Shown here in pieces: positions 2,621-24,469 of a DNA stretch of 64,000 nucleotides (its first letter is position 1; each line of letters opens with the position of its first letter). Position numbers and translations under genes: made by a program. Source of the stretch: Nemertoderma westbladi (taxonomy: Eukaryota > Animalia > Xenacoelomorpha); the NCBI GenBank assembly GCA_032718475.1, contig JAUCBJ010008278.1, forward strand, positions 1-64,000, read 5' to 3'. The notes beneath the pieces are model-generated. The model saw nothing but the letters and a program-made list of their open reading frames with translations, did not search any database and was not told where the DNA came from.

Positions 2621-3414
2621 TGTTATACTGCTAACATTTACACATAAAGTTAGCACTACAGAGGATTCAGCCAATATAGTGATGCACACATGAGACGCTA
2701 GGGGGCGCATCGCAATATACACATACACATGTCCGAGTTTGCAAAAACTTTAAAGTGCTAACAGCCAAACTGAAAGCAAATTTGGACCAATCATGGATTT
2801 AGAATTAATTTGGCAGGTTTGGTTACTACTTTAAGTTAGCACTTTAAAAAAGTTAGCAATTTAAAAAAGTTAGCACTTTACCCTAAACAGCTGCTGTGTA
2901 GTTGGACCTTTAGGGGTTCTACAAACAACCAAAAGTTTTTTTTGAAATTCTATACTGAGACAGTCTTCTATAGTTCATATGTTTGCCGCAAGGAGTCGAA
3001 TTGTCAGAAACATAAAAGTAGCTGTAATAAACAGAACCAAACATCAGATTAATCTAAAATCTGGTAGGTGTTAGCGCATTTGATAAAATGATCCAACAAT
3101 GAGTACCAAGAATACAATGAACCAGCATCCAACCAACCAAGCTACTGTATATATATTAAATTAACCGTAATAGAATGATACAGCCAATGGGAGGTAGGAT
3201 ATGTCTATAATGGCACTGAATGGTCCGGCAAGTTAATGTAGAAGTAGCTGTAATTATAGCACTATTCATTAGATTCATCCTAATGATGCATGTCCTGATC
3301 GTTGTTTAATTAGAAATCCTACACACAGACAGACTTTTATAGTTCCTTTGTCTGCCGCTAGGGGGCAAATTGCCGGTTAGCATTGCATAAATATAACAAG
3401 GAGGCAAGCTATCA

Positions 3415-4453
3415 CAGAACAGTAGTAGCTAATGGTTTTAAAGGGCTCGCGGTTTTATCATAGTCTGTTTTACTTCTCAGAGCTTCCCTGACAGCTACTT
3501 CATTAGCCTTGGAAGCGGATCGTTGCCAAGATGGCGAGAAACTGCGGTAATGGGCAGGAACTTGGGAACGTAGGGGGTGCCCATATAAAATGACCGCAGG
3601 TGACCGACCGTCTATTCTCGGGGTATTGCGTAGTTCGAGTAGGGCATGTAAAAATTCGTCAGAACCGATGTTACCATTGGTTTTGGCAACTAGATTTTTT
3701 AGGGTTTTGACTGTTACTTCAGCGAATCCGTTTGATTGGGGATAGTGTGGTGTTGATGCGATCCATGAAACGCCCCATATATTTAAGAATTCTTGGAATA
3801 ATTTGGCGCTATATTGCGGACCTCCATCCGATCGTAGACATACAGGTACTCCAGTTTGTACAAAATATTTGCGAATTTGACATCCTGGGATGTCGGAGTA
3901 TAACGCCAGCTAGTTATAAACGGAAACCCGGAGAGAAGATCAACATATGTTAAGTAATGGGAACCACCATACTGAAACAAGTCAGTGGAAACTGATTCAA
4001 ACACTCGGCTTGGTAAAGGATCCTTGATCAGTAGTTCTTTTGGGTTACTTGGTAAACGAACTTGACATTTAGTGCATAATTTCACTACAATTGTTAGATC
4101 ATTATTTATTTATTCCAGGCCAGTAAACAGCTTCTCTGGCACGTCGCTTAGTTCTCTCGATCCCTTGGTGGGAATCATGTAATCTAGCCATTACTTCTTT
4201 TCGCATAGCTTGTGGTATGATTAAACGTTTACCGAATAATATTATTCCTTCATCTGTGGTTAGTTGGTCCCAAATTTTCTTAAACATTAAAATATATTGA
4301 GAGTACTTTTCAGGGATTTGAAATCCTGATTCAATTGCATTAACTAATGCTAAAACTTAAACTAAACTAAAACTAAAATTAAAACTAAAACTAAAACTTA
4401 TCCACTGTTGAGTCTTCCTTAACAGTCGTCTACTGGAGGCATCAGGTATATTA
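3415..4453 (-). pseudogene. Ty3/Gypsy pol, integrase region (degenerate)
   Basis: RLHDSHQGIERTKRRAREAVYWPGIN...CTKC (HHCC zinc domain), VSTDLFQYGGSHYLTYVDLLSGFP (core), LLELRNTPRIDGRSPA. Contains frameshifts. Confidence 0.92.
4350..4400. repeat. (TAAAAC)n microsatellite inside Gypsy pol
   Basis: ctaaaacttaaactaaactaaaactaaaattaaaactaaaactaaaactta. Confidence 0.8.
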
Positions 4454-6061
4454 TGTTGCCGTTATCCCAACACCAGGGGGGAAAAACGCCGATGCTGGAG
4501 ACGTGACTTTACAGACCACCGAGCCCCGGCCAGTCACCGGATATTGATTGTGGAGAAGGAATGTTTTCTGAGATGCAAGTTTGCGGTTGATAAAAAGCTG
4601 CATTAGTTGGATATACTCTTTAATGTAACTTCCTATAGTTGAAACCTGTTCAACATCATTGAAACCTGAAACCTGATTAAGAATAATTTTGGGCTTCCCC
4701 AAATCAATATACACCAAATATTCACAATAATTATACACGATAATATAAATCCCTACAGTATATTATTTAATTACCCACTGTTCGCTCAGATTTTAGCCTA
4801 CCTAATGTTCCCCAGATTTTCCCTCGGTCCTAGTCTTAGTGCCGTAGTGTCGGTGTCGGTCGACCCTGTCGCGTGTCCGTTCCACCCCTCACGAACCCCG
4901 AAGGGAACGATCATCGAGAACCAGCACGGCTTGGCTAAGGGTCGGTCCAGTCGGTAGACTCTGTCGCGTATCCTTACCGCCCCTCTCGAACCCCGAAGGG
5001 ATCGGTCATCGAGAACCAGTACGGCTTAGCTAGGAGTCTGTCGTGTCGGTGGACCCGTTCGCGTGTCCGTTCCACCCCTCACGAACCCCGAAGGGTTCGA
5101 TCATCGAGAACCAGAACGGCTTGGCTAGGGGTCCGCCGGTTCATCGCAGAAACCCAACCACCTAGGCTTTCCGAGTCCCTTTCAGGCTCGTAGTCGCTTC
5201 GGCAGCCGAGAAACTGCTCCGAACAGTCGGTAGGCCAGTAGAGTCTAGTCCTTTGTCTATCGACCCCGTCGCGTGTCCGTTCCACCCCTCACGAACCCCG
5301 AAGGGAACGATCATCGAGAACCAGTACGGCTTGGCTAAGGGGTCTGTCGTCGGTTCCCGTCGCAGATCCCGGTACAAGCAGTCAGCGTTCCGAGTTCTTT
5401 TCAGTCTCGTAATAGCTGCCGTTGACCAGAGACCGCTAAGGGCAGTCCTCGTCAAACCCGTCCTGTGGCCAGCCCTTTCGCATGTCCGTCCCACCCCTCG
5501 CGAACCCCGAAGGGATCGGTCATCGAGAACCAGTACGGCTTAGCTCAGGGGGCAGTCGTTAGTTGGCCACCCGTTCGCGTGTCCGCTACACCCCTCACGA
5601 ACCCCGAAGGGTTCGATCATCGAGAACCAGAACGGCTTGGCTACTAAGGGGCCGTCGTTTCCCGTCGCAAATCCCTGACACAAGCAGTCAGCGTTCCGAG
5701 TTCTTTTCAGTCTCGTAATAACTGCTGTTGGCCAGGGACCGCTAAGGGCAGTCCTTGTCCTTTAGGCCTGGCGCATTACCAAATCCACCCCTACAGGCAG
5801 CAGGAAGTTGGCCAGGGCCTAATAGTACTCAGGCTAACCTGAATACTGCTTGCATTTTCCATCCCCCCCTGGCCCTTATAACTATGAAATTATTCCCGTA
5901 CCCTGTAAGTTCCCCCAAAGTTCGCCCATAAATCGCCCCCAGTTTATTGAATGTGCCCAAAACCCATGGTCCCGCACCCAGTAGTAATATCGGAATAATC
6001 AATTTTAATAAAATACAAAAATATTCAACTCGCGTTATGGAAAGTTGAAATACCGCGAACA
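4454..6061 (-). repeat. 3' LTR of BEL/Pao element (~1.6 kb)
   Basis: tgttgccgtt...taccgcgaaca, nearly identical to 17299-18903. Confidence 0.96.
4869..5760 (-). repeat. LTR-internal array: six ~72-bp hairpin repeats plus three ~115-bp second modules
   Basis: Repeat starts at 4869, 4964, 5059, 5269, 5478, 5575 (spacings 95, 95, 210, 209, 97). The same array is present in the 5' LTR at ~17714-18605. Confidence 0.92.
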
Positions 6062-6072
6062 GTCCCCCCCAA
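6062..6072 (-). promoter_or_regulatory. Polypurine tract (PPT)
   Basis: Minus strand reads ttgggggggac immediately before the 3' LTR TGT. Confidence 0.8.
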
Positions 6073-6354
6073 TGACCTTCGTGAAGTCTGTCGTTCGATT
6101 GAGTTTGCGTAGGTCATTCCCAATATAAAAAACCCAAATTTAATATTGCATAGTTTTAATTAATTTGGCCTAGAGTTTGTATAAAAATAAATGTTTGATA
6201 AATGTTCCTGGAATATCCCGATCCACTATTTCTTTCTCTGATACGCCTTTCGTCTCTTCGCCCGTCGACTCTCATCGATCGCTATAGCTGGTAGAGGAGC
6301 GTCCACATCCATCGTGAGTAGCGCTTCGGCTTGTCTCCTGGCGGCTCTTCCTTT

Positions 6355-7797
6355 CTATGGCATAGGGATCATGTCGGTTCGTCTTTCCAACTCAGACTTG
6401 CGTGCCTCTAGGAACCACTCTCCGTCACCGAACTCCTCTTTATACGAGTATAATCGTCTAATGACTTCAAATGGACCGAATAATCCGGCGCTCAGTAGCA
6501 GATCCACGTAATGGAAAGGTAGCGTGGCCGACGTGTGGAGGCGTTCCGGGAAGGAGAAATACCCGCACGCCATCTCCTGCGCGATATTCCAAGCGTTTCT
6601 CCGAACCTTGGTCTTTAAGTGGCTGTTTGCGTATGTTTCAAACATGACCATATTTCCCATAGCGGTTACGTCCTTGGTTGGACATTTGATATAGCAGCGG
6701 GGGCTAGAGGAATGTCCACGGAAACCGCACGTGGTGCAGAGGTTATAAAGGATCGGACAGACGGAAATGTCGTGGCCCGATGTCGCGCAGTATGGGCAAT
6801 AGAGTATCCCGAGGAGCTGGAGGCATGAATCGGTAACCCGATTCCTTCTGCCGCGTGGGCACTGCTCCGAACCACAGTCGCCGCATACCTCCAACTGCAT
6901 CTCTCGACCAGGAAATATCGGAATCGGGACGCCGACGTGATACTCGAGTCGTCGGTCGCTCTTCGGAATATTCGCGGTGGTCGGTAGCCCGCGGAATGCT
7001 AGGCTTTTGCGTAGTAGGTTCTCGCTCCGATAACCTTCTTTGTGTCCCGCTGGTCTCAACTCGGACGACCGTTTCTGGCGGTGGATCCATTCAGTTTGCT
7101 CGGCGTACCAACGGGTTAGTCGCATAGGGTCCTGAGGAACGGCGGGTGTAGTAGCCACCGCTGGTCGGCGAAGGGGTGCCGGGGTTTTAGACGGAGGGAT
7201 ACCGAGGAGATCGTCGGGTGTCGGCGCATCGCTGGGGCCCTCCTCGACCAGTATCGCTGAGCGGGTCCGTTGGTGGCTGGTACTCGGAATCTCCGACGAC
7301 CAATCTTCGCCACCCGGGAAAGGATACGGGGATAACCGTTGGCATATGTCGCCGAAGTCGCTCAATGCAGCTGTAGTGGCTACCTCCCTCGCGGGGCTAC
7401 CGGAGCCGCGTGGGGTGTAAACGCCTGCTCTCTTCATCGGTTCGGCCGAGGCAACCCGTTTGGCGGCCGGTCCATACGCGGCCTCCGGCTCGAGTTGTCG
7501 CTTCGGGGTGGAGAGTAGAACACCCTCGTTTAGCCATATCTCTTCCCCTTCCGAAGAGATCAGAGGCTCCTCCGCACCGAGAAGTTTGGTAATCGTAGGG
7601 ATGTCGTAAGGCCCGCTCTCGTCCCAGGAATCGATAACGGCGAGCGTTTTAGTCTCTCCCGGTGCGATGTTCTCGACCGCTTTGAACGCGTGGTGTATGA
7701 CCTCGTTCCAGTCGTAGTCGACGAAGGAAAGCGGGATCGCCGTAATAAGGTTATCGAGAGTTTTACAGATAAACTTAGCGACGGTGTAGCATTCCAT
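6355..7797 (-). CDS. Cargo ORF, 480 aa, with Cys-rich CCHC zinc-knuckle region
   Basis: Uninterrupted ORF. CPYCATSGHDISVC = CX2CX4HX4C, followed by CTTCGFRGHSSSPRC, with an upstream CGDC. The frame stays open past the TAG to 6226. Confidence 0.8.
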   Translation of the reverse strand: MECYTVAKFICKTLDNLITAIPLSFVDYDWNEVIHHAFKAVENIAPGETKTLAVIDSWDESGPYDIPTITKLLGAEEPLISSEGEEIWLNEGVLLSTPKRQLEPEAAYGPAAKRVASAEPMKRAGVYTPRGSGSPAREVATTAALSDFGDICQRLSPYPFPGGEDWSSEIPSTSHQRTRSAILVEEGPSDAPTPDDLLGIPPSKTPAPLRRPAVATTPAVPQDPMRLTRWYAEQTEWIHRQKRSSELRPAGHKEGYRSENLLRKSLAFRGLPTTANIPKSDRRLEYHVGVPIPIFPGREMQLEVCGDCGSEQCPRGRRNRVTDSCLQLLGILYCPYCATSGHDISVCPILYNLCTTCGFRGHSSSPRCYIKCPTKDVTAMGNMVMFETYANSHLKTKVRRNAWNIAQEMACGYFSFPERLHTSATLPFHYVDLLLSAGLFGPFEVIRRLYSYKEEFGDGEWFLEARKSELERRTDMIPMP

Positions 7798-9062
7798 AAC
7801 AACGTAAACGTAGTTCCGTCGATCGGGATTCTCCCACCTTTGGTGTATCGTCCACTTCCGATCAACGTCCTTCCATCGACCCTCTTGCTCGCTCTTTATT
7901 TCTAATCCCGGGTATCCACCGTTGTAAAAGCTTTTGCGTAATTAGCCGGTTATTTTCCCGTAAAGTACTCTGTAGTTGGTTTACCAGGCATAAAAGGGCC
8001 GTGTCCTTACTGTACTGGTGTTTTAGAGGACATAAAAGTCATTTCTTCCGTATGTGTACTTTAAAGGACATAATCCGTAATTTCGTGACGCAATAGCTAG
8101 ATACTCCTGAAAACAGTGTCGCTACCATGACGACGGCTAACAGCTGATATTGCCACGTCGAACATTTCTTTGTTTCTTTGTTCTCTCTTGTTCAGTCAAC
8201 CAATCAGAGCGTTTTATGGCTCTTGTACAGAAATTTCCTAGAAATCACGCAATGCGTTGTGGGCAGTGTTTACATTCTGTCCTAAGCCAGGAGAGAGCGG
8301 CTTTGGAATATTTTGTGCTTTTCTGTTTTAGCCTTACACTAGTAGGCTTAATTATAAGGACATATATCCGTTATCAAATCTTAACACTGCAAAACTCAAA
8401 CCAAAACATAACATACCATACCTAATCAAACAACCTGTGCATACTTTTATATTGTTATACTGCTATTTACTGTCAGTTCTTCATAATATGGTTGATGAAT
8501 TATTATATTTGGAATAACGATAAATAACCCCGAAACCCAATATTCTTGATATACCGAAGGTAAGAGAGAAAGGTTACATATAACGATTGTGACTTATGTT
8601 AAAGTGGTTTGAAGTGAATCTAATGTTATTTGATAGACCCTACATGAGTCGGTCTGTGTTCCTTTTATATGTGACTAAAATCAGTGAAGATTGGCAGATT
8701 AGTGTGCAGTATTGTGCAGCGTTGTGTATGAGTGAGACTGATAACGAAGCATTTCCTAAAGAATGCGCCATATATGTGAATTATAACTAAGCCATATCGT
8801 TGTGAGTAGTTTAAGTCATAACTCTGTTTATATAGATAGAACGCCACGTCCTAAAGGAACTGTTAATATTCCCCGAAGGTGAATAATATTGTCAGAGATT
8901 ATATAATACTGTCAGTCGAATAATACATTAGGCTTACATAGCAATAAGATTAAGCCGTCGAACCCAATCTCCCGGGTATATCCAGCGGGTGAATGATCGC
9001 GCACAGATTGGTTTCGACTAGTGTAGTGAATCAAATACTTGTCATAGGCTAAAAGCGATTTA

Positions 9063-10031
9063 TTATCTAGAAGACATCCTAATTTGGCGGGTTAAACTGC
9101 CAAAGGTCTGAAAGCGCGAACAACCGTATATTTTATTATAGTCCCGGAATTTCTGGGGTTTGAAGTCGATACCGCCGTTGAGCACAGCGAGGTAGCCGAT
9201 CCCTGATTTCGTCGGTCTCACCTCTTGGAATCCTCGCATGAACTCGGCGAATCGTAACCAGGCTAGTAGCGTTTGAGTGTCAATGCAATGGCTAAGGGCG
9301 TTGAGGTCGTCTCGTCGGTTTCTTCCTGCAGGAGCGTTTGCGTAGTCGTTCCGGACGTCCGCCTTGATATCCGACCCGATTTTAATGACGTCGAAGTCGA
9401 AGAGGATCTTTTGGATTTCTGGAGGTAGCAACCAGATCGCTCCGGCTGCCTGCACTTCCTGTCTGGGTGTCGGGAATATTCGGCACACCAGTACCAAACC
9501 GTCCAGGGTTCCGAGGACGATGACTAAGGATCGACCGTATTCTTTCGCCCCGTACTTTTCCTGGTAGTCGTCTCGGTTCTGGATAATCGATATGCGTTCC
9601 TCTCGAAGCGTCGCCGTACACTCCGACAGGTTTCCCCAGTGGGCGAGGTACGTACTCTTGTCGTCGACGAAACTTTGACATCTCGCCAACGTAATCGCTT
9701 TCGAGGTGGGCGTCGCGTTTCCCTCGTTGTCGTAGATCAAACATCGGGATCTGTAGACGCTCTGCCGGAACGTTTCCCAAAACGACGAATCGTCCCCTCC
9801 GGTTGCCTTTGCGTTCCGAGTTCTTTTCAGTCTCGTACTAGCATCGGCTAACCGGAGGGCTCGTAGATTCTTAGAATCCGGTCCCTCTCGCCCGGTGAAT
9901 TTAACGACTCGCACGTTCTCATTTAGCAGGGTGCTCCAATTTGTATCAAAGTCAGGGGATCCGGGTTGCGAATATTCCAGTAGATCTATCGTGTTACGTA
10001 ATTCGCCGATAATTTGGCGATTTGGGTCCAT
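9063..10031 (-). CDS. Cargo ORF, 322 aa, DnaQ/WRN-exo-like 3'-5' exonuclease domain (possibly C-terminally truncated)
   Basis: LIYDNEG is a candidate ExoI DxE. SLVIVLGTLDGLVLVCRIF, LPPEIQKILFDFDVIKIGSDIKADV (ExoII-like), CIDTQTL and SGIGYLA resemble the WRN/EXD pattern. No ExoIII YxxxD identified. Confidence 0.65.
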   Translation of the reverse strand: MDPNRQIIGELRNTIDLLEYSQPGSPDFDTNWSTLLNENVRVVKFTGREGPDSKNLRALRLADASTRLKRTRNAKATGGDDSSFWETFRQSVYRSRCLIYDNEGNATPTSKAITLARCQSFVDDKSTYLAHWGNLSECTATLREERISIIQNRDDYQEKYGAKEYGRSLVIVLGTLDGLVLVCRIFPTPRQEVQAAGAIWLLPPEIQKILFDFDVIKIGSDIKADVRNDYANAPAGRNRRDDLNALSHCIDTQTLLAWLRFAEFMRGFQEVRPTKSGIGYLAVLNGGIDFKPQKFRDYNKIYGCSRFQTFGSLTRQIRMSSR

Positions 10032-10579
10032 ATTTACGATTATATCCGTTACAAATTAGATCAGTTAATTATAAGTCCAGAAAGTCTGAAACTATAGCGA
10101 TAGCAGAATAATTCAGTTTTTTATTTAATTCAGTTTATTAAATAATATTGCTATATAGACATCTATCATCTTATTGCTAATACATTCAGCATTTACAGTT
10201 ACTATAGCTATACATAATATCCAACCAGTTTTTTATGACTTTTTTGTCCTTTCTTTTTTCAATTCTTTTCTTAGACTTTTTTATACCTTTTTTTTGTCTT
10301 TTTTCATTTCATTATTATTTCATCTCATTTCATTTATTTCCACATATATTTCAACACATTTAGTTCCACCATTTATTTCACATTTATTTATTTCCACATC
10401 ATCATTGGGTTTATAGCCCCCCGGCTATCATCATTTGTTATAAGCGCAGCACCAGGGTGCGCATCATTATATTTTCATCAGCATACGCGTCATCATTCAG
10501 GTTTATAGTAGAGTTGTCTGATCCTTTTCATCGTTTCCAATTATATTCAATCATTTTCTTTGGTTAATCTTTGTCGTGG

Positions 10580-10995
10580 AAGGGGTGTTACGCGGCAATC
10601 TGGGATCTACAGCTGGACTCGTTACACCGCCTACGCCCCAAACTGCGCACGTAACGGACAATGAAGACGCTGGGAGTGAAGTCACGTGGATGCACCATGG
10701 ACCCACCAGAATAACACTCCCAACAACATAAAGCTCAGTCGACGAAGTCATGTGGGATGGGGTTACGCAACATTCTGGGATCTACAGCTGGACTCGTTAC
10801 ACCGCCTACGCCCCAAAATCCACGCAACGGTCCCACCAGAATAACGCGACTGAGAAACATAAAACCCTCTATCGTCGAAGTCACGTGGATGCACCATGGA
10901 CCCACCAGAATAACGGGATAGAGGGGGTGTTGCGCGGCAATCCGGGATCTACAGCTGGACCGCCTACGCCCCGAACTGCGCACGCAACGGACAAC
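10580..10995. repeat. Imperfect triplicated repeat in the BEL 3' region
   Basis: gggatctacagctggac...ccgcctacgccc occurs three times, gaagtcacgtggatgcaccatggacccaccagaataac twice. Confidence 0.85.
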
Positions 10996-11267
10996 ATAAC
11001 ATACTACAATGAATACAATGAATTCCACTTCAAATCTTTTCCATTTCCAATAATCCAATATCATTGGTCCCGATGACCAAAATCAGGGTAAACTAAACAT
11101 AAACGACCCTGCGTCAGTCGAAACATCTGCAGGGTGATGCTGGACTCCACATAACACACGAGGAAACACAAATACCATTGCGTGGTTACAGTTGGTTTAA
11201 GGGGGGTCCATAATTCATTGTCGATAAATCACAGTTTAAAAGAGTTTGTCAACATGATGAGAAGGGT

Positions 11268-11753
11268 TTAAACGCATTTGTCATTGTCACCGATGTCTGC
11301 AGCAGGATCTTGAGTAGGGAACTTATCACCTCTCGTAGAGTCACCGCTATCATTGCCTTCAAGAAGGCACAGCTTTTGGATGGGGCGTTGGTAGTGGCCC
11401 GATGCCGTTCGTATCGTCACAGTCCTCGCAAGTCCGTCTTTGCTTGGGTGTATGGTCACGACCCGCGCCACAGGCCAGTGAACGCGGTCTTTGAGATCTT
11501 CTTTAACTAGTACCATGTTGCCAACTGCGACGTTCCGGTAGGTGTTGTTTCATTTCCTCCTGGTCCGGAGGGTTATGAGGTACTCCTGGGCCCAAATTCT
11601 CCACCAATGCGCTGCCAACGCTTGGGCCTTTTTCCAGTTTGTATGTTTCGCGATCTCGTTGGGATCCGGGAACATGGTTTCCGGGAGAACGTGGGTTTTG
11701 GGTCTCCCCAGTAGGTGGTTAGGAGTGAGTGACTCAACTGAGGCATTCGCCAT
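11268..11753 (-). pseudogene. BEL/Pao integrase C-terminal region (DUF5641-like), one in-frame stop
   Basis: LTPNHLLG...WWRIWAQEYLITLRTRRK*...GNMVLVKED...WPVARVVTIHPSKDGLARTVTIRTASGHYQRPIQKLCLL. Confidence 0.92.
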
Positions 11754-11792
11754 CCGGGTATTATGGCAGATTAGTCCGTGCTCTCCCGTTAA

Positions 11793-13346
11793 CCCTATTA
11801 AACCCGGGGGGGGGGGTCAATATGACCCCTCCCGTGGTTTTTTTATTATAATTCTGAAACAAACGCAGTTGGAAATCTGAAATTTTATGACTTTTCCTAA
11901 AAATCTATTGTCTTCCTAGTAGTGAAAACCGTTTTCAAAAATATTGGGTACTTTTCGAGTTATAGCACCATTTTTTAACCCTACTTTTGGCACTTTTTTT
12001 GAGACGTTTTTTGAAAATTACATTTCATTAAATATGAATTGTAACATCTCTAATTTTGATTTACACCGGTTTTTTGGTGTTAGAAATTTGATGGAATTCA
12101 TATCAATTGATTTAGAAATTTCAAACTTGTATTTTTCGGCGGGTACCAAATTTTGGTGCCAGCACCAAATTTTGAAATAAGTCAATTTTGTAAATTGAAC
12201 GTTTGAAACTTGTTTTTTACGCAATTGGGGTTTTTTGGGTTTCTGGATTCGATGAAATATATACGAGTTGCACCAAGCGTAGCAAACTTGCATTTTTCGG
12301 TACTGTGTGCAAATTTTGGTGCTAGCACGAAATTTTGAAAATCCATTCAATAGATAAAAATGCTTGTGACAATTTATTTCTTGCGTTTTAGAGGTTTATG
12401 GCTGTTCTGAATTCAATGGAAAATATAATTATCGAACTAGACATCTCAAACTTGTATTTTTCGGATGTGGGTGCAAAATGTGGTGCTAGCACCAAATTTT
12501 GAAAACCATCAAATATATCAATTGATTGTGTCACCTTGTTTCTTGCGTTATACGGGTTTGTGATGGTTCTGAATTCAATGGAATCAGTAAAAATTTCATA
12601 AGAGTTCTCAAACTTGTATTTTTCGCCGGTGGGTGAAAATTGTTGTGCCAGCACCAAATTTTGGAAAATATGCAAATTGATAAGTAGATAGTATCACCTT
12701 GTTTCTTGCGTTATACGGGTTTATGAGGGTCCTGAATCCGATGGAATCAATAAAAACAGCACTGGACATCGCAAACTTGTACTTTTTGGTGATGGGTACG
12801 AAATTTGGTGCTAGCACCAAAATTTGCCAAATTACGCCGAAAAATACAAGTAGCAATGATCTGGTATATTAGAAATGTATTCCATTAGAATCAGCGCCCT
12901 CGAAAACCTGAAAATGTGAATTTATAGCATCGTATAAGTGAATTAAAAATTTTGTGTTCTAACTGAAAAGTGCTGGTTACTTGTTTTTTTCATTTTTTTC
13001 CTACGCAGAGAGGACCCTACAGCCATTTATAGTAATCATATCATTTTTTAATATTTTCCAATGTATTTTGCACCCCAGAAAACCTGTATTGAAAAATAAT
13101 TAGCCGAAAATGTAACTTTCAAATTTGGTGAAAATTGTGCACTACTTGTAATTTTGGTGCTGCAATATAGCCACCCCAGTACATTTTTTCGAAAATTTTT
13201 TTTTTCGGTCGGATCCAGACAAGTGATACCTACGTACATACAAAAAATCAGACGTTTTCGTAAATATTTGTAGATTTTAGAGGGGGGGGTCAATATGACC
13301 CCCTCCCGGTATTTGTACAACATTTTATAGCCCGGTACTAATAGGG
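11793..13346. mobile_element. piggyBac-like non-autonomous TIR element
   Basis: TTAA on both flanks (11789-11792, 13347-13350). TIR ccctattaNNNccggg. Subterminal palindrome ggggtcaatatgacccc near both ends. Internal ~120-bp repeats; no transposase. Confidence 0.9.
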
Positions 13347-13400
13347 TTAATGGTGTCAATGTTATCAACATCATTATTATCATCAACAACCTTATTAGCC

Positions 13401-16400
13401 ACCAAAGCATGGGCACGCGCCAATGTCCGTCTTTGAACGTGGCCTGATCAAAAAAGTTGGTACAATATTGATCTTCCTCAGACGGATTCTCGTCCTTCTC
13501 GGCAAACTCTCGGGTCTCCACATTAAAGCATCCGGTCATCTCCCGCTGGGTTCTCTCGGTTTCGAGAAATAAATCCTCATCGAGGTTTGTAGCTGAGCAA
13601 TATCCCACGGATGTTACATTTTCTTTAATCTGACATTTAGGAAGATATGTATAGGTGTCAGTAGTTTCTTCCTTGATGCCGCAGAGGGTCCATCCCATTA
13701 TGGTTCGTTCAGCGTAAAAGCCGTCATCTTTCTTTATGGATCGGGCGACATCTCCGGTAGGTATGTGTAATTCCGGTGTATCAAGTCCGATCAGTAGGGT
13801 GATGCGGTTTACGTCCAACTGCGGACACCTCAGATCTACATCGTCTCGGTCCAATTGTATGAGGGGGGCGTACTCGGCTGATTGTCGGAACCGCACCCGG
13901 AGGTCTGTGTGTACCAAGGCGTTCTTGATGGTTAACTTAACCGTTTCGTAGCCCTTCATCACTCCTTCCATCTGGAGTTGCACCTCCCCGGACTCTACCT
14001 CTCTGTTATCGGTGATGGTTTGTATGGGCCGTTTACAAGGTTCATATTCTAGGCCGAGTTGCTCGAGGAAATCCCGGTCGATGATGGTTCCGTCGGACCC
14101 GTTATCGAGGAACGCGAGTGTCGTCAAGGATTTGCCGACTCCTTGGATCCTTACTGGGATTACCTTTGCGAAGACCATGTAGCGGCGATTTATAAGATTA
14201 ATCGTGGCCGAAATATTTGTTACTTGTGGTGTATCGGTGGAGATTTTAAACGGGTTGGTTTCTCTCTGTTGGGTTGTCCGGGTTCCTTTGAAAACGTGGT
14301 TTGTTTCTCCTCTTCGCTTGGCTTCGATCCGAAAGGGGAGGGTAGTAAAATCGAAGTTCGCGGGGATGTGGAGGAGCGTGTGATGGCGTTGGTCGTTACA
14401 GACGGCACAGCATGATCTTTGGTCGCACTCCCGAACATAGTGACCTGTTCCAAGACACCGGAAGCATCCTCGGTGTTTCATTATCGCCTCGAAGCGTGGG
14501 ACGAGTTCGGCGAACTGAAACTTTCTGCAGAATTCCACTTTATGTTTCTCTCCACAGAAGAGACAGAGCAGGGAATTTGTGATGCCTTCCCTTTCGGGTG
14601 CCCAACTCGCGAGATAACATGCACATTCCTCGGCGGATGTCGGTTCCTCGTAGTCTTTGTCGTCGGAATCCTCGGCCATGGTGATGGCCATCGTACTCAC
14701 CGGTGGGGGGCGGAATCTCGGTTTCGGAGGGGTTATCTTACTCCTGGAGTTGCTCTCTATTCCGTCCAACTTGGCGAGACTCTGTTTTGAAAACATCGAG
14801 TCATTCATGGCTTCGGAGATATCGTCCAGGAATGCCGACATTTCAAGGAAGCTAGGATCTCGATCTGGATGTCTGCGCCGGAGATCTACACATTTATAAG
14901 CCCACTTACTTTGTAGCCATCCGGGGAACTTCCGGGCGATCTGTCGGAGGTTTAGAATGTTGTTCACCTGGTCCTCCTTATTTAAGGGTTTCAGAGTATA
15001 GTAGGCATCCTTCATAGAGTCGGAGAATTCCTGGATGTTCTGTGGGTCCCCTAGTGATCCCGCGTCCTGTATCAGTCTCTCTAGAGTTTTATTAATTATA
15101 GTCCCGGTATTTCTGTATCTTTTGTCTAGAGTTTTCCATGCGTCGTAGTATGCTTCATGAGAACCTCCCTCAAAACAAGCGATGATTCGGCGTGGTTTGT
15201 CACCCAGGTATTGCGATAAATATACCACTTTCTGTGCATCGGCTATGTCCGTTGATCCAATCTGCGCAAAGAACCGTTTCTTGAATCTGAGGTAATCTAC
15301 GGGATCTCCTTCGAAGGTGCGGATCTCCATCTTGGGCATGGAGAGGCGGTTTTCCAATGCCCGGATAATGCCGATGTTGTCCGAACTGGAGTGGTTCGGA
15401 GGGTTATAGTTATTGGCACTCTCTCCCATACTCGATGGATCAATGGTAGGTGGAGTTTTAATGATGACGCGACTACGGGTTTGTGGTGTGGATGTGAACG
15501 GGTTGTTGGATCGAGGAGTGGCGTCCGGTTCCGAGTCCCTTTCAGGCTCGTACTTGGGTACACTCGCTGTCGTGGTGTTGGATGGGAAATAAGGTTCCTC
15601 ATTCTTTAGCGTAGCCGGTGGGGGATGGAACACCGGTGCTAGTGCCGATAGCGTAGACTGTTTGGTAGGCGGGATCTCGGGTTTCGGAAGTTTCGCCGCT
15701 GTCGGTATAAATGACTTTTCTAATTCCGGTACCGGGATTGGTTCATATTCCTGATCTATATCCCTTTCCCAGTCCTCGTAGAGTTGAATATCTCGTTCTA
15801 TAAGTGCGGCTTCGTATTTCGCGAGTTTTGCAATATCCGAATTCTTTTTGTGGATGAGAATTGCTTGGGCCTCGGCGTGTTGTTTACGCATTTCTGCTTC
15901 CCAATTACGTTGTTCGATCTCTCGTTTGGCCTCTCGTCCGCGCTGTTCGGCCTCCTGTTTGCGTTGTTCGGCCTCCTGTTTGCGTTGTTCGGCCTGCCGT
16001 TCGTCCTCTCGTTTGCGTTGTTCGGGCTGTCGTTCGGCCTCTCGTCTATGTTGTTCGGCCTCCTGTTTGCGTTGTTCGGCCTGCCATTCGTCCTCTCGTT
16101 TGCGTTGTTCGGCCTGCCGTTCGTCCTCTCGTCTATGTTGTTCGGCCTCTCGTCTATGTTGTTCGGCCTCCTGTTCGCGTTGTTCGGCCTGCCGTTCGGC
16201 CGCTTGTTCGGCCTCTCGCTTTTGTGTTTCGGCGGCTAATACATCTTGCTCGGCTTGCAGTTGAATATACTCATCTTCCATCCGAGCTTTGAGGGCTAAT
16301 GCCTTCCGTTCTCGCAGTTGGTCTCGGAGTGGCGGGGCCCCTTGAGAACTGCGCGCTGAGCCGGATATCTCGCTCCTAGCGCTGGAGTGCTGATTTCTAG

Positions 16401-16860
16401 CGGACCCCGTTCTCTTTCGATGTACTGCTGTCCTGATGCTGGAGGATCGTACTGATTCCGCGTCTGTTCTTTCAGCCCTCTTGTAATACTGTTCTTCATA
16501 GCCTCTCACAAGGCTGAGGGTCCTCCGGTGTTGTTTGCGGAACCCATCTAGATGTACAATGTGTTCTTCCAACTTGGGGTAGTTTTCCTGATCGGTGGAG
16601 GGAACGAGCTCTTGGTACGCCTGTATCATTCTTTCGTACTGCTGGAGGATATTTCGGATACTTTGAAGCTGAGTTTGTACCTCATTGAGGGGGGTTTTGA
16701 CTCCCTTGAGTTGTTTCTCCATCCGTTGATACGCTCGGGTTACTCCGCCTTTGAGAGCCCCTAGCCGACGGGTCATGTTCTTGACGTTTGGTACCTCGTC
16801 GGCTTCCGAGTCTGTGTGGTGATCCATCTCGTCGGTATCGGATACGTTATTTGTCGTCAT
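13401..16860 (-). CDS. gag-pro: BEL/Pao Gag-protease polyprotein (computed ORF 13048-16860 reads through into filler and the piggyBac-like insert)
   Basis: DUF1759-like TFEGDPVDYLRFKKRF...KVVYLSQYL. Knuckles CLFCGEKHKVEFC, CFRCLGTGHYVREC, CAVCNDQRHHTLLH. Protease AFLDNGSDGT. AERTIMGWTLCG. BEL-like sequence ends at DGHWRVPMLW. Confidence 0.93.
15910..16220 (-). repeat. In-frame 21/33-bp repeats encoding a coiled-coil tract in Gag
   Basis: Iterated EAEQRKQ / EDERQAEQRKR. Confidence 0.9.
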
Positions 16861-17048
16861 TGTAACGCCTTGTCGATAGCTAGATACGCGATGTCATAAA
16901 ACTGTTCCTCGTAGGTATTGTACTCAGCTTGGACCACCCGAACGGTAATCCTGAATCGTCCGACGTTCGTTCCTTGTACTTCAACTTCGACGTGCCAGAT
17001 TCCTGGCTCAACTTGGATTATATCAATGGGTGTGATCGATACTTCCAT
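16857..17048 (-). CDS. 63-aa upstream ORF whose stop overlaps the gag start (ATGA)
   Basis: ATG start; TGA at 16859-16857 overlaps the gag ATG at 16860-16858; protein-like composition. Confidence 0.45.
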   Translation of the reverse strand: MEVSITPIDIIQVEPGIWHVEVEVQGTNVGRFRITVRVVQAEYNTYEEQFYDIAYLAIDKALQ

Positions 17049-17298
17049 TCCCTGTTAACAACTCTCCAAATATGTGATCTGCCGACTACGAGTTGGTTAG
17101 ATCGAGTTTGTTGATTAATTAAACCACGACTTCGTCTCAACTCAAATACTAGAGTTTCCTCGTAGTGGGTGCTGGCAAGCACGTAGAGAGTTTTGAAGAG
17201 TATTGAAGGATTCTCAACTTCCACCAGTTGAAGTTGACCGTAATTATTCTTAATTTTGACACCCTGTCAAAATTGACCACATTAATTATTCTTAATTT

Positions 17299-18903
17299 TG
17301 TTGCCGTTATCCCAACACCAGGGGGGAAAAACGCCGATGCTGGAGACGTGACTTTACAGACCACCGAGCCCAGGCCAGTCACCGGATATTGATTGTGGAG
17401 AAGGAATGTTTTCTGAGATGCAAGTTTGCGGTTGATAAAAAGCTGCATTAGTTGGATATACTCTTTAATGTAACTTCCTATAGTTGAAACCTGTTCAACA
17501 TCATTGAAACCTGAAACCTGATTAAGAATAATTTTGGGCTTCCCCAAATCAATATACACCAAATATTCACAATAATTATACACGATAATATAAATCCCTA
17601 CAGTATATTATTTAATTACCCACTATTCGCTCAGATTTTAGCCTACCTAATGTTCCCCAGATTTTCCCTCGGTCCTAGTCTTAGTGCCGTAGTGTCGGTG
17701 TCGGTCGACCCTGTCGCGTGTCCGTTCCACCCCTCACGAACCCCGAAGGGAACGATCATCGAGAACCAGCACGGCTTGGCTAAGGGTCGGTCCATTCGGT
17801 AGACTCTGTTGCGTATCCGTACCGCCCCTCTCGAACCCTGAAGGGATCGGTGATCGAGAACCAGTACGGCTTAGCTAGGAGTCTGTCGTGTCGGTGGACC
17901 CATTCGCGTGTCCGTTCCACCCCTCACGAACCCCGAAGGGTTCGATCATCGAGAACCAGAACGGCTTGGCTAGGGGTCCGTCGGTTCATCGCAGAAACCC
18001 AACCACCTAGGCTTTCCGAGTCCCTTTCAGGCTCGTAGTCGCTTCGGCAGCCGAGAAACTGCTCCGAACAGTCGGTAGGCCAGTAGAGTCTAGTCCTTTG
18101 TCTTTCGACCCCGTCGCGTGTCCGTTCCACCCCTCACGAACCCCAAAGGGAACGATCATCGAGAACCAGTACGGCTTGGCTAAGGGGTCTGTCGTTGGTT
18201 CCCGTCGCAGATCCCGGTACAAGCAGTCAGCGTTCCGAGTTCTTTTCAGTCTCGTAATAGCTGCCGTTGACCAGAGACCGCTAAGGGCAGTCCTCGTCAA
18301 ACCAGTCCTGTGGCCAGCCCTTTCGCATGTCCGTCCCACCCCTCGCGAACCCCGAAGGGATCGGTCATTGAGAACCAGTACGGCTTAGCTCAGGGGGCAG
18401 TCGTTAGTTGGCCACCCGTTCGCGTGTCCGCTCCACCCCTCACGAACCCCGAAGGGTTCGATCATCAAGAACCAGAACGGCTTGGCTACTAAGGGGCCGT
18501 CGTTTCCCGTCGCAAATCCCTGACACAAGCAGTCAGCGTTCCGAGTTCTTTTCAGTCTCGTAATAACTGCTGTTGGCCAGGGACCGCTAAGGGCAGTCCT
18601 TGTCCTTTAGGCCTGGCGCATTACCAAATCCACCCCTACAGGCAGCAGGAAGTTGGCCTGCTAATAGTACTCAGGCTAACCTGAATACTGCTTGCATTTT
18701 CCTTCCCCCCCTGGCCCTTATAACTATGAAATTATTCCCGTACCCTGTAAGTTCCCCCAAAGTTCGCCCATAAATCGCCCCCAGTTTATTGAATGTGCCC
18801 AAAACCCATGGTCCCGCACCCAGTAGTAATATCGGAATAATCAATTTTAATAAAATACAAAAATATTCAACTCGCGTTATGGAAAGTTGAAATACCGCGA
18901 ACA
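17299..18903 (-). repeat. 5' LTR of BEL/Pao element
   Basis: tgttgccgtt...taccgcgaaca, followed by TSD tatta. Confidence 0.96.
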
Positions 18904-19110
18904 TATTATGTTCAGTACCTTTACGCCATATGACCTTAAATTGGTATGCGCTAAGTTGCATTTTATAATTTTGCAGTTTTACATTATCAATCATGTCCAG
19001 GGTGTATTTGTTGAAAATCGTGACTAATGAACAGTGATCAGTTACTATGGAATATGTTGGAAGTCCAGCAAGGTAGAGGTGTGATTTCTTTGTTGCCCAA
19101 ACAATAGCAA
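18904..19110 (-). pseudogene. Ty3/Gypsy RNase H fragment
   Basis: AIVWATKKSHLYLAGLPTYSIVTDHCSLVTIFNKYTLDMIDNVKLQNYKMQLSAYQFKVIWRKGTEHN. Confidence 0.92.
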
Positions 19111-22067
19111 CCCGGGTTGAGATTCTTAGTATATTTCCTAAGTTCTAAACAAGTCTGCTTAGAAAGGCTTAGAACGCTTAGCAACGCTGGTGCAAAGGGT
19201 GAGTAAAGTACTTAACAAATTTTCCAATTTCATAAAAATGACATTGCAAGTTTATAATGTTTAGTAAGTTGTTGCTATGTGACTGACAAGTATTACAGGA
19301 TATATAAACGTGCTTTATATGTAACCGATGATATATGCAAGCACTTTGCAAGTGTAATGAACTAATAACATGCGCATTACAAATCTAGCATATATCTGTA
19401 ACCTATATATTCCCGGCACTAGTTCGAACCTGCGTCGCAAATTTTTTTAAGTAATAATTATTTTTGAAAAATAAATGTTGTGGGAAGAGTGGCGGTTAGC
19501 TTTCGAATGAAAGTAAATGATGACCCCCCCCCCCCCCCCCCTCTGAGACAAGAGAAACAACACACGGAACATCATAGTGAGTGATGTACTGTATGCTATG
19601 CACTTGTGTTTGGTTTGATACTCTTTGTTGCAACCCCCCCCCCCCCCCCTCCCCTATGACATATGTAAACAAATTAATACCGAGACTCAATGTTTTTAAT
19701 ATAAACAACATATAAACAAACATATTATTACTGTACGTTACATACACATCAGATCTAAACGCGTAAATACTGTAGGTCTACACTAAAACACAGTTACGTC
19801 GGAAAAATTTATCCAAAAAGTTCAAAAATGGTATTCCTCATTTCTGTTTATGCAATAATACTATTTAATTCAAATTTGTAATCTTATCAAGCGCTACAGT
19901 AGATTACGATTTGAGCACGAAATAAAATAGAAAATTTATCACCCGTCATATAAAGTTACCAATAACATCATCATATTATATTATAACTATATGGATTGCA
20001 GCAATTGTATTTTGAACATTAGGGTTAACTTTTCCCAACGAAAATAGTGGTTCAATGAATACATTAAAATTAGAAATACATACACAGAAACATTAAAAAT
20101 GATTTTAGACATGTTCAAAATCATTAATACAAGGAATTCCAAATAATGAAGTGCTACGGCTACCATTCATAGTACTGGTATTGTAGATATAGATATAAGG
20201 TTATTATTGAGATTAGATGCAGGATAACTAGCGGTTCATTGTGGTGGTCCAGTTGAATTTTAGAGCATTTTTTTACAATTTCGTTACCGGTACTACCCGG
20301 TGTCTGTGAGAAAAGACGGTTTCCTTGGGAAAATGTCTGGAAAACACAGAATAAAAAATCAGGGAAAATATTTTTAAAGTAGGCCTACTTTTTTATCTTC
20401 ATTTTGTTATTTTTTATTGGGAGCTGCCGCTCCCATACCCCAGACCCCCGTTTAGTACAATGAAACAGCTTTAACAATAATATAATATAAAGCAAAATTA
20501 CAATTAATATTATACTCTGAGAGTTTTACAAGAACCTACAGTAACTATAATGCCAAATAGATAACACAGATACAAATAAGAGAAAGCACAACACAACATA
20601 GTTTACAGATTCAGTTTACAGCGTCAGACGAGTGGAGTGATCGGCAATCCATCCTCCGTACCCAGACCACTGTGCCACTATAGCCTCGACTCCCTGATGC
20701 AATGAGAAGCCCCTCGAACTATGGCGAACTGCACACGGCGGCGAACCCACTCCATGACGGTGCTATAAGGTCTGTCCCAGTTGTGGTGTAACCTATCAGC
20801 GAAGATACTCGGGAGCTTGTTGGCATGCGGTGCCAGAACTCCATTCTACGGAGAGACAAGAGACTACGAAGGGTGCAAAAGTCCGCTCTCCTCTGTCTCG
20901 CTGGTTCCACATATAGTGCGGTTTTAGCGTCCTCCACAGATTCTAGGACCCTCATCGGGGGGCGTCCCGCATATGGCTCGGCGTCATCGGTTTACGACCC
21001 TGATATCTAACAACGCCTGAGTCTGCCGGTTGAATGCCCCCCGAACTCATACATCACACCAAGTCCTGCCTCTCCACTTAATCCAGGCTGGTCTCTGACT
21101 ATGGGTTCCGACTGTCACGTTTCGTGGTCCAAATGCTAGAGAGGCCAGATCCCCAACAACATCACGGAGTTCAATATATGTCTTTGGATTATGAGGCCTT
21201 TTTTAAATTCCAATTCTTCCAAAGTCAATTGTTATTAATCAAATTTCACTAACATTCAAATAACTTGAATTTTAATTGTATCAATTAGGCATTAATTCAA
21301 TTAAATTGTCAATTAGCAACAATCGGACAATTAGGCAAACCATAAATATTTCATTAACGATATAGACAGTACAAACAAAACAAATAAACAATAAACAAAA
21401 CAAGTATACAAAAGGCACTAAACAATTAAAGATTACAAAACTCTATAAATAATAACAAAATTAAAGAGTACAAAATACAATAAACAATTGAATTGAAGTA
21501 AACAAACAGCAATAAAGCTACCAGTATAAATTAAAGTAACAAAACGCTATACACTATTTATTAAAGTAAGCAAAACTCATTAAACAATTAAACGTAAATA
21601 AAGAAAACTCAATAAACGCAACTCTGCAGTTCAGCAGTAGGCCTACTGACCACAAAATGACTGAATGAGTCATTTATTGGCGGTGGATCATGTGACTGAT
21701 TTTTAATTGCAATGCGTGTCAAGCACCACTAAAGTTCTTATTAAATTTTTGTCAAGTTATAAAGTCAACGAAAGTATGTTCTAGGTATACAAAATTTGTT
21801 AAAAATTTGCTAAGTGCATTGCATGATTATAAAGTCATCGAAATTATATTCTAGGTATACAAAATTTGTTAAGAATTTGTTAAGTGCATTGCATGATAAG
21901 TGCCCACCCAAATATTTCTTAAAATCTATACTGTACTTGGCAAGTATTTTTTAATTCCTTAACAAATAATGCAAAATGTGGTAATTGTAAAAATTTAGTA
22001 AAATTATCATGCCAGTACCTTGCCATTAGGTAGTACTTTACTAATATGATAAGATTCTCAACCCGGG
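19111..22067. mobile_element. Non-autonomous TIR DNA element with CCC...GGG ends, CACTA/EnSpm (CMC)-like
   Basis: 25-bp TIR cccgggttgagattcttagtatatt versus cccgggttgagaatcttatcatatt (reverse complement of the right end). Apparent 2-bp AA TSD. Interrupts the Gypsy ELE|ALAIVW motif. Superfamily assignment is tentative. Confidence 0.75.
20620..21180 (-). pseudogene. 3' fragment of a restriction-like-endonuclease non-LTR retrotransposon (CRE-like)
   Basis: VRGAFNRQTQALLDIRVVN, VLESVEDAKTALY...RRADFCTL and NWDRPYSTVMEWVRRRVQFAIVRGASHCIRESR, spread across shifted frames. Confidence 0.75.
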
Positions 22068-23747: not shown

Positions 23748-24469
23748 GCACTGACACAGTACGTGCACTGACACAGTACGTGCACTGACACAGTACGTGC
23801 ACTGACACAGTACGTGCACTGACACAGTACGTGCACTGACACAGTACGTGCACTGACACAGTACGTGCACTGACACAGTACGTGCACTGACACAGTACGT
23901 GCACTGAGACAGTACGTGAACTGACACTGTACGTGCACTGACACAGTACGTGCACTGACACAGTACGCGCGCTGACACAGTACGTGCACTGACACAGTAC
24001 GCGCACTGACACAGTACGTGCACTGACACAGTACGCGCACTGACACAGTACGCGCACTGACACAGTACGTGCACTGACACAGTACGTGCACTGACACAGT
24101 ACGTGCACTGACACAGTACGTGCACTGACACAGTACGTGCACTGACACAGTACGTGCACTGACACAGTACGTGCACTGATACAGTACGTGCACTGACACA
24201 GTACGTGCACTGACACAGTACGTGCACTGACACAGTACGTGAACTGAGACAGTACGTGAACTGACACAGTACGTGCACTGACACAGTACGTGCACTGACA
24301 CTGTACGTGCACTGACACAGTACGTGCACTGACACAGTACGCGCGCTGACACAGTACGTGCACTGACACAGTACGTGCACTGACACAGTACGTGCACTGA
24401 CACAGTACGTGCACTGACACAGTACGTGCACTGACACAGTACGTGCACTGACACAGTACGTGCACTGAC
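23748..24469. repeat. 17-bp minisatellite (GCACTGACACAGTACGT), ~42 copies
   Basis: Direct tandem repeat with a few recurrent variants. Confidence 0.98.

Follow-up and report, generated by a model that had tools for sequence, protein, structure and literature searches.

A 26-nt unit is shared by the two LTRs, the gag gene and a cargo gene of a BEL/Pao-type retrotransposon, and is a real, non-chance feature whose likely kind is that of a cis-acting retroelement RNA signal. It is probably a structured module of the element's RNA, serving as a multi-copy protein-docking tag for export or packaging, and it would most likely be read by a zinc-knuckle protein of the element itself (Gag or the cargo protein). 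The window (the whole 64-kb stretch of DNA that was analysed) contains eight copies, three per LTR, one in gag and one in the cargo gene, all on the same strand of this minus-strand element and referred to below as B modules:

5169..5194, minus strand: B1, gag-type variant, with predicted sarcin-ricin-type loop ACUA/GAA, bulged-A stem and GAAA tetraloop
5385..5413, minus strand: B2, cargo-type variant, AUUA/GAA, predicted tip of a 70-nt hairpin (z -3.5)
5691..5719, minus strand: B3, cargo-type variant, AUUA/GAA, the copy retained in the short LTR form
9814-9839, minus strand: cargo-gene B module, AGUA/GAA, within the coding-region hairpin 9789..9862
15529..15554, minus strand: gag B module, AGUA/GAA, outer stem weak
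18014-18039, 18233-18258 and 18539-18564, minus strand: B1 to B3 of the 5' LTR, located by motif scan

The exact LTR/ORF matches in direct orientation that the first-pass annotation had reported were recovered, with 5169-5192 identical to 15529-15552 (24/24 nt) and 5385-5411, 5691-5717 and 9811-9837 identical to one another (27/27 nt); the chance expectation for matches of these lengths is approximately 1e-7 and 2e-9. All the copies listed in that annotation are present, but it missed the three in the other LTR (18014, 18233, 18539), and its 24- and 27-nt matches stand, but the unit that is really shared measures 26 nt, with an extra invariant A in the five aligned contexts, which on the sense strand lies 5' of the 24-mer by two bases. 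A scan of the window tolerating 7 mismatches returned the same eight copies and added none, and the degenerate 24-mer gave eight matches versus none in 100 dinucleotide shuffles. The unit is read as YEPERDSE at gag codon 437 and as TRLKRTRN after cargo codon 65; the frames differ, hence conservation is at the nucleotide level, as had been argued, and both the proposal of a cis signal and the tie of the cargo ORF to this element are likewise supported. [quoted passage not shown]

Other exact matches between the LTR and the interior reach at most 12 nt (direct) and 13 nt (inverted), so the remaining inter-repeat segments of the LTR are not copies of the interior, and the motif, which had been described as a spacer copied from the ORFs, is instead the most conserved repeat of the array. 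The motif pattern (one version of which left aside the AUUA form) had no matches in metagenome, viral and prokaryote collections, and a covariance model of the B module found no further copies: 8 of its 11 matches were the training copies and their LTR twins, and the rest had E values of at least 2.

The retrotransposon and its cargo gene

By type the element, which runs along the minus strand, is a BEL/Pao LTR retrotransposon, of which this is a non-autonomous copy with the pol core missing. It comprises the following features:

4454..6061, minus strand: 3' LTR, TG...CA, about 1.6 kb, with 21 differing columns versus the 5' LTR
17299..18903, minus strand: 5' LTR, TG...CA, paired with the 3' LTR
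13048..16860, minus strand: gag-protease ORF with DUF1759, CCHC knuckle and aspartyl protease, its 3' end entering an insertion
11793..13346, no strand assigned: non-coding insertion flanked by TTAA sites, bearing inverted repeats at its termini and repeats of 163 nt inside; its ends are those of a piggyBac-like MITE
11271..11789, minus strand: DUF5641 remnant (BEL/Pao pol end), containing a stop
9123..10031, minus strand: N-terminal part of the cargo gene, with a DEDDy/WRN-like exonuclease-like domain and no Pfam match of its own
7923..9122, minus strand: 1.2-kb solo LTR (TG...CA) from a different high-copy family, which splits the cargo gene and has the duplication ACCGT
6355..7917, minus strand: C-terminal part of the cargo gene, with a low-complexity linker and a Cys-rich zinc-knuckle-like domain

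The LTRs are bordered by a 5-bp target duplication (TATTA at 4449-4453 and 18904-18908), and a G-rich tract precedes the 3' LTR. Homologs of gag (9 of 7790 candidates) are BEL/Pao polyproteins with Peptidase_A17, which at 19-26% identity are too distant for testing the motif. No ORF or domain of the reverse transcriptase, RNase H or integrase core was found between the LTRs. Three DNA runs labelled as one organism contain the element family in abundance, a run labelled as another contains it in part, and no RNA run with it appeared among the nine runs listed. TATA-like sites (5880, 4735), AATAAA (5948) and ATTAAA (6009, 4771, 4624) are spread across the LTR, which allows the array to lie in U3, R or U5; because no LTR base is missing from the full-length RNA, whatever the position of the start and poly(A) sites, this RNA has at least five B modules.

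The "exonuclease ORF" of the first-pass annotation does carry the motif, but it is only the N-terminal part of a longer gene: together with the next ORF it forms one exonuclease-like/zinc-knuckle gene that is split by the solo LTR. The two parts match the N- and C-terminal halves of a single 648-aa protein (P0010; E 2e-16 and 3e-11), the one relative found in the representative library; no cargo homolog was found among 1608 candidates, and further searches yielded neither another homolog nor a cargo locus. Contigs of runs X1 and X3 skip the solo LTR (7923-9122), an 88% copy of which is located at 1789-2619. The exonuclease identity of the cargo is weakly indicated (a WRN-like Atlas match at 0.92 whose recognition fell short of the threshold, and a Pfam match at E 0.2 that concerns P0010 only), and any ExoI/II/III acidic (catalytic) residues are putative; the single-sequence fold of this part has a pLDDT of 32.9, which makes the model useless, and a PDB search with it gave three weak, unrelated matches. 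The C-terminal domain resembles nucleocapsid (NC) knuckles (profile E 2.4e-4), and domain searches found no DNA-binding domain in the cargo. A DEDDy-like cargo ORF 3' of pol is likewise found in the bdelloid Juno and Vesta LTR elements and in Terminons, as DEDDy ORF3 (PMC5408684), from which the present element differs in being BEL/Pao, in its zinc-knuckle fusion and in a domain whose catalytic residues are putative. The activity of exonuclease cargo genes is described as undemonstrated in that paper, and the word "hairpin" is absent from its main text (PMC5408684).

A possible splice acceptor (TTTCAG on the sense strand, 10043-10115) lies about 55 nt before the cargo ATG and suggests a spliced subgenomic mRNA. 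The stretch 10576-10994, which separates the cargo gene from the pol remnant, contains imperfect repeats about 70-170 nt long, and the leader inside the 5' LTR (17190-17298) displays palindromes at 17214-17237 and 17252-17274 and a repeated 13-mer at the expected primer-binding site.

Predicted fold of the shared module and of its neighbours

On the sense strand the motif is predicted to fold into a hairpin that is capped by a GAAA tetraloop and has a bulged A, and that an A-N-UA/GAA 5x4 internal loop of the sarcin-ricin (loop E) type closes off. The order is A-N-UA, CGAG, a short upper stem (bearing the GAAA loop and the bulged A), CUCG and GAA. Minimum free energy folding and RNAalifold both gave the 5x4 internal loop, which is the standard sarcin-ricin size (PMC8450098), and the sequence signature of sarcin-ricin/loop E (A-N-UA/GAA in a 5x4 or 6x5 loop between helices) fits 8/8 copies. 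Outside the upper stem the invariant columns are exactly A-N-UA and GAA, the bulged base being the sole variable position there (gag and cargo have G, B1 has C, and B2 and B3 have U); in known motifs this base is usually G, although U, A or C occur, and a non-G bulge destabilises the motif (PMC8450098). The flanking pairs (U.C, U.C, U.C, A.C and G.A) match, or reverse the order of, the tSH combinations listed in the same paper, among whose flanking mismatches are UC, AC and AG (PMC8450098).

Conservation ends where the 5x4 loop ends. Beyond it the outer stems diverge in sequence yet pair in 48/55 cells, a number of paired cells equalled in none of 500 shuffles, with three pairs changed on both sides; these counts are small and come from five distinct contexts of one element, the same rows from which the structure was derived. 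A literature-based descriptor of the sarcin-ricin geometry matched all eight copies, compared with 25, 25 and 6 of 5000 shuffled modules; it also matches two other sense sites in the element, and its window-wide matches number 31 on the minus strand and 8 on the plus strand. B2 has a z of -3.5 in sense versus -0.4 in antisense, and the LTR displays six C(UUCG)G and three GAAA loops in sense versus one and none in antisense. The cargo hairpin (9789..9862) has a z of -6.6, is the most stable of the 139 windows of its ORF part and is equalled in stability by 1 of 500 synonymous shuffles; its other strand is nearly as stable (-33.4 vs -35.2). In gag the upper stem is predicted to pair at 0.75-0.79 in context, and the outer stem is not significant (z -0.55; 45/500 synonymous shuffles as stable; rank 126 of 564).

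[quoted passage not shown] It differs from them in the 6-7-pair bulged-A stem below the tetraloop and in its position in a retrotransposon LTR and two ORFs, and its fold is a prediction only. The ribosomal SRL proper was considered and rejected, since 6-7 pairs lie between loop and GNRA tetraloop in place of the single C-G pair described (PMC4227780).

In the LTRs the B modules are accompanied by a second repeat, the A module:

4856-4946, 4951-5041, 5046-5136, 5256-5347, 5465-5556 and 5562-5652, minus strand: six A modules of about 91 nt in the 3' LTR, irregular hairpins with a C(UUCG)G loop
17701..18497, minus strand: six A modules in the 5' LTR, located by covariance model

Pairing extends to 89.9% of the 168 cells in these modules, with five pairs changed on both sides. 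The A modules carry k-turn-like sequence (C-stem, GAU bulge and tandem GA) and in a k-turn register would share with the standard k-turn the 3-nt bulge, the tandem G.A/A.G, C:G at -1b:-1n and, in 4/6, U:U at 3b:3n (PMC5689011). In contrast to the standard k-turn (PMC5689011), they have a competing register predicted to be 4.2-7.5 kcal/mol more stable in 6/6 copies, and their k-turn stem never varies and so offers no covariation; a k-turn descriptor matched 10/12 A copies, and of 5000 shuffles it matched 194 in its loose form and 8 in its strict form. A k-turn in the A modules is accordingly to be regarded as a lead and not as a result. The covariance model of the A module gave 13 matches, 12 of them training copies and their LTR twins and the rest with E of at least 2, and hence no further copies.

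Variation in sister copies and template switching

Sister copies were compared over 9762-9886 (125 bases) in four runs, 21 of 215 records being listed, with gag lying outside the comparison. Five places vary at 5% or more, and three of these five are motif positions, namely the bulged base and the two partners that form the A.A mismatch; LTR contigs also pile onto the motif here, so that depth shares are not assignable to cargo copies. A cargo-flanked contig (run X5, depth 3) has all three changes: A.A becomes C-G, which is the pair of the gag-type variant, the bulged base is changed and the U-A above is kept, at the cost of two amino-acid changes (S65T and R67S). A deep contig of run X3 over 9814-9868 also shows three differences, given as a number and not by position. 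One LTR contig of run X4 has the C without its G partner, and the B2 loop reads ACUA in LTR contigs of this run versus AUUA here. An 83%-identical cargo contig of run X4 spans the motif and is not among the three X4 records of the 9762-9886 comparison; in this cargo subfamily the motif is perhaps not intact. Adjacent variants at 9848-9849 (5-10%, similar depths; phase not shown) together could shift the bulge and keep the cargo outer stem.

The array grows and shrinks between repeats among copies. A short LTR form skips 4908-5613 (run X4, depth 98.8; also X5 and X1) and keeps one A module and a cargo-type B module. A low-depth joint, 5417>9806 (runs X1 and X3), has 0 shared letters and would place two motifs in tandem.

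Template switching in reverse transcription could have seeded the LTR and internal copies, or could homogenise them. It had been proposed in the first-pass annotation and may account for the exact LTR-ORF identities, in a manner compatible with function; among the 15 listed of 26 joints, however, none crosses over inside the shared tract. Pressed further, only the LTR copies would matter, the internal ones being relics or hot spots of template switching, or else the LTR modules would be copies taken from the ORFs that multiplied without serving any function. This we consider unlikely, although several observations speak for it: each LTR variant equals one ORF variant (B2/cargo 31/32 nt), the three-site cargo variant adopts states found in LTR copies, the array expands and contracts between repeats, and a low-depth joint, 5417>9806, occurs in X1 and X3. 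Against it stands the cargo copy's own, unrelated and very stable outer stem in coding sequence, which is not expected from passive copying. Moreover, the 5417>9806 joint, with 0 shared letters, sets the motifs in tandem without a crossover inside the motif, and of the gag-type changes the third (9824) is absent from the differences listed for the three-site variant, so that B1 as seen here is not the donor.

Proposed protein docking and competing readings

A protein-binding site on RNA is the best reading of the B module, since a compact hairpin is predicted to be kept in five unrelated contexts regardless of frame. This reading is supported by the 5x4 fit, the conservation limited to the loop, the pairing of divergent stems, the strand bias and the stability of the cargo hairpin, together with the compensatory cargo variant, the short LTR that retains a B module, the NC-like knuckles of the cargo and the precedents of RcRE/Rec and CERV. 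It is weakened by the number of contexts, only five, by the weak outer stem in gag, the C without G in run X4, the 83%-identical cargo contig in whose subfamily the motif may not be intact, the less stable k-turn register of the A modules, the non-G bulges of the LTR copies and the folding of the cargo hairpin on both strands.

The 26-nt module would thus present a sarcin-ricin/loop-E internal loop, a short bulged-A stem and a GAAA tetraloop to its likely readers, Gag and the exonuclease-like cargo protein, which are the two zinc-knuckle proteins of the element. By analogy with RcRE/Rec and CERV, docking would probably serve RNA export or packaging, and a subgenomic cargo mRNA would carry a B module of its own. 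Structured export elements are known in retroviruses and MusD (PMC3362945). With RcRE/Rec of HERV-K(HML-2), RRE/Rev and CTE (PMC11379458, PMC10309623) the present system shares a structured sense RNA, here predicted, in LTR or coding sequence and an accessory gene 3' of pol, whereas the B module is small and occurs three times per LTR and once per gene, with no sequence or protein homology shown and its export role suggested by analogy. CERV of the C. elegans element Cer1 belongs to a Ty3/Gypsy element and has a G-protein-like domain (PMC10309623), in contrast to the BEL/Pao affiliation and the exonuclease-like domain found here, and no RNA element is named for CERV in the accessible text of that paper (PMC10309623).

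RNA marking for export or packaging is barely known in invertebrate LTR elements, and a 26-nt module that turns up in five unrelated settings, of which two are coding, provides a small defined candidate ligand for Gag, the cargo protein or host factors. A search of full texts outside subscription journals and supplements returned no title or abstract on LTRs with arrays of sarcin-ricin or k-turn hairpins, and likewise none on a DEDDy-zinc-knuckle cargo or on tandem stem-loop packaging signals like these. It is conceivable, though we hold it only tentatively, that a BEL/Pao lineage has evolved a Rev/RRE-like system assembled from ribosome-style parts, in which k-turn and sarcin-ricin-type hairpins arrayed in the LTR, with one operator in each of the two genes, would be read by the exonuclease-zinc-knuckle cargo protein, and template switching would keep the operators in step.

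Mimicry of the ribosomal sarcin-ricin loop directed at host factors, by which the module would achieve internal initiation by recruiting a loop-E-binding protein or translation GTPases, or act as a decoy for a host ribonuclease, appears improbable. In its favour, the leader is AUG-rich (17 ATG counted from 18700), and the loop-E RNA of an enterovirus is reportedly an inhibitor of RNase L. Both arms match the rat SRL, the cargo copy amounting to the core of the SRL, interrupted behind GAGA by 13 extra nt, and the gag copy sharing 8 + 7 nt (PMC4227780). AGUAC/GGAA is, however, required by the motif itself, so that only 3-4 extra bases match; the SRL has one C-G pair between loop and GNRA tetraloop where the B module has 6-7, with GAG paired (PMC4227780); and copies deep in coding regions are ill-suited to an IRES.

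A VANC/VANDAL-like site where a protein of the element binds, as the first-pass annotation suggested, here taken as a site on DNA that would counter silencing or drive transcription, is a poor fit and very unlikely. The B modules do share with VANC targets same-orientation copies amplified in tandem repeats of changing number (PMC5735166), and the CGAG...CTCG dyad could suit a dimer. VANC, however, binds dense, non-coding 8-9-nt motifs of double-stranded DNA in DNA transposons (PMC5735166), whereas the unit here is 26 nt long and has eight copies, two of them in ORFs and thus in exons, and the cargo has no DNA-binding domain detected. The U.G versus U-A variation, the non-canonical loop, the UUCG and GAAA loops and the fold bias towards the transcribed strand are features of RNA on one strand. 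Least probable of all is that the LTR targets the element's own gag and cargo mRNAs through a small-RNA guide or a repeat/spacer array of CRISPR-like kind: the size of 24-27 nt is that of small RNAs, there is one LTR variant per gene and spacers alternate with hairpin repeats, but the copies are sense-oriented, the motif forms the predicted hairpin tip while the stems differ between copies, short LTRs are without the gag-type copy, Rfam gives nothing, and one repeated motif alone matches the interior, no other inter-repeat segment doing so beyond 13 nt, for which reason the CRISPR-like array was rejected.

The Rfam scan, which covered 4300-19200, gave one chance-level match (RsmY, E 2.6), and a tRNA search found none. 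A decayed Gypsy-like pol surrounds the element, with integrase and RNase H remnants at 3412-4109 and 18671-19144, and the first 8 sense bases of the solo LTR, which is very high-copy, are those of the LTR of the element that hosts it. Further along the window, a 17-nt tandem array (23748-24469) lies together with a complex satellite comprised of units of about 1.5 kb with 10-nt repeats (23600-64000).
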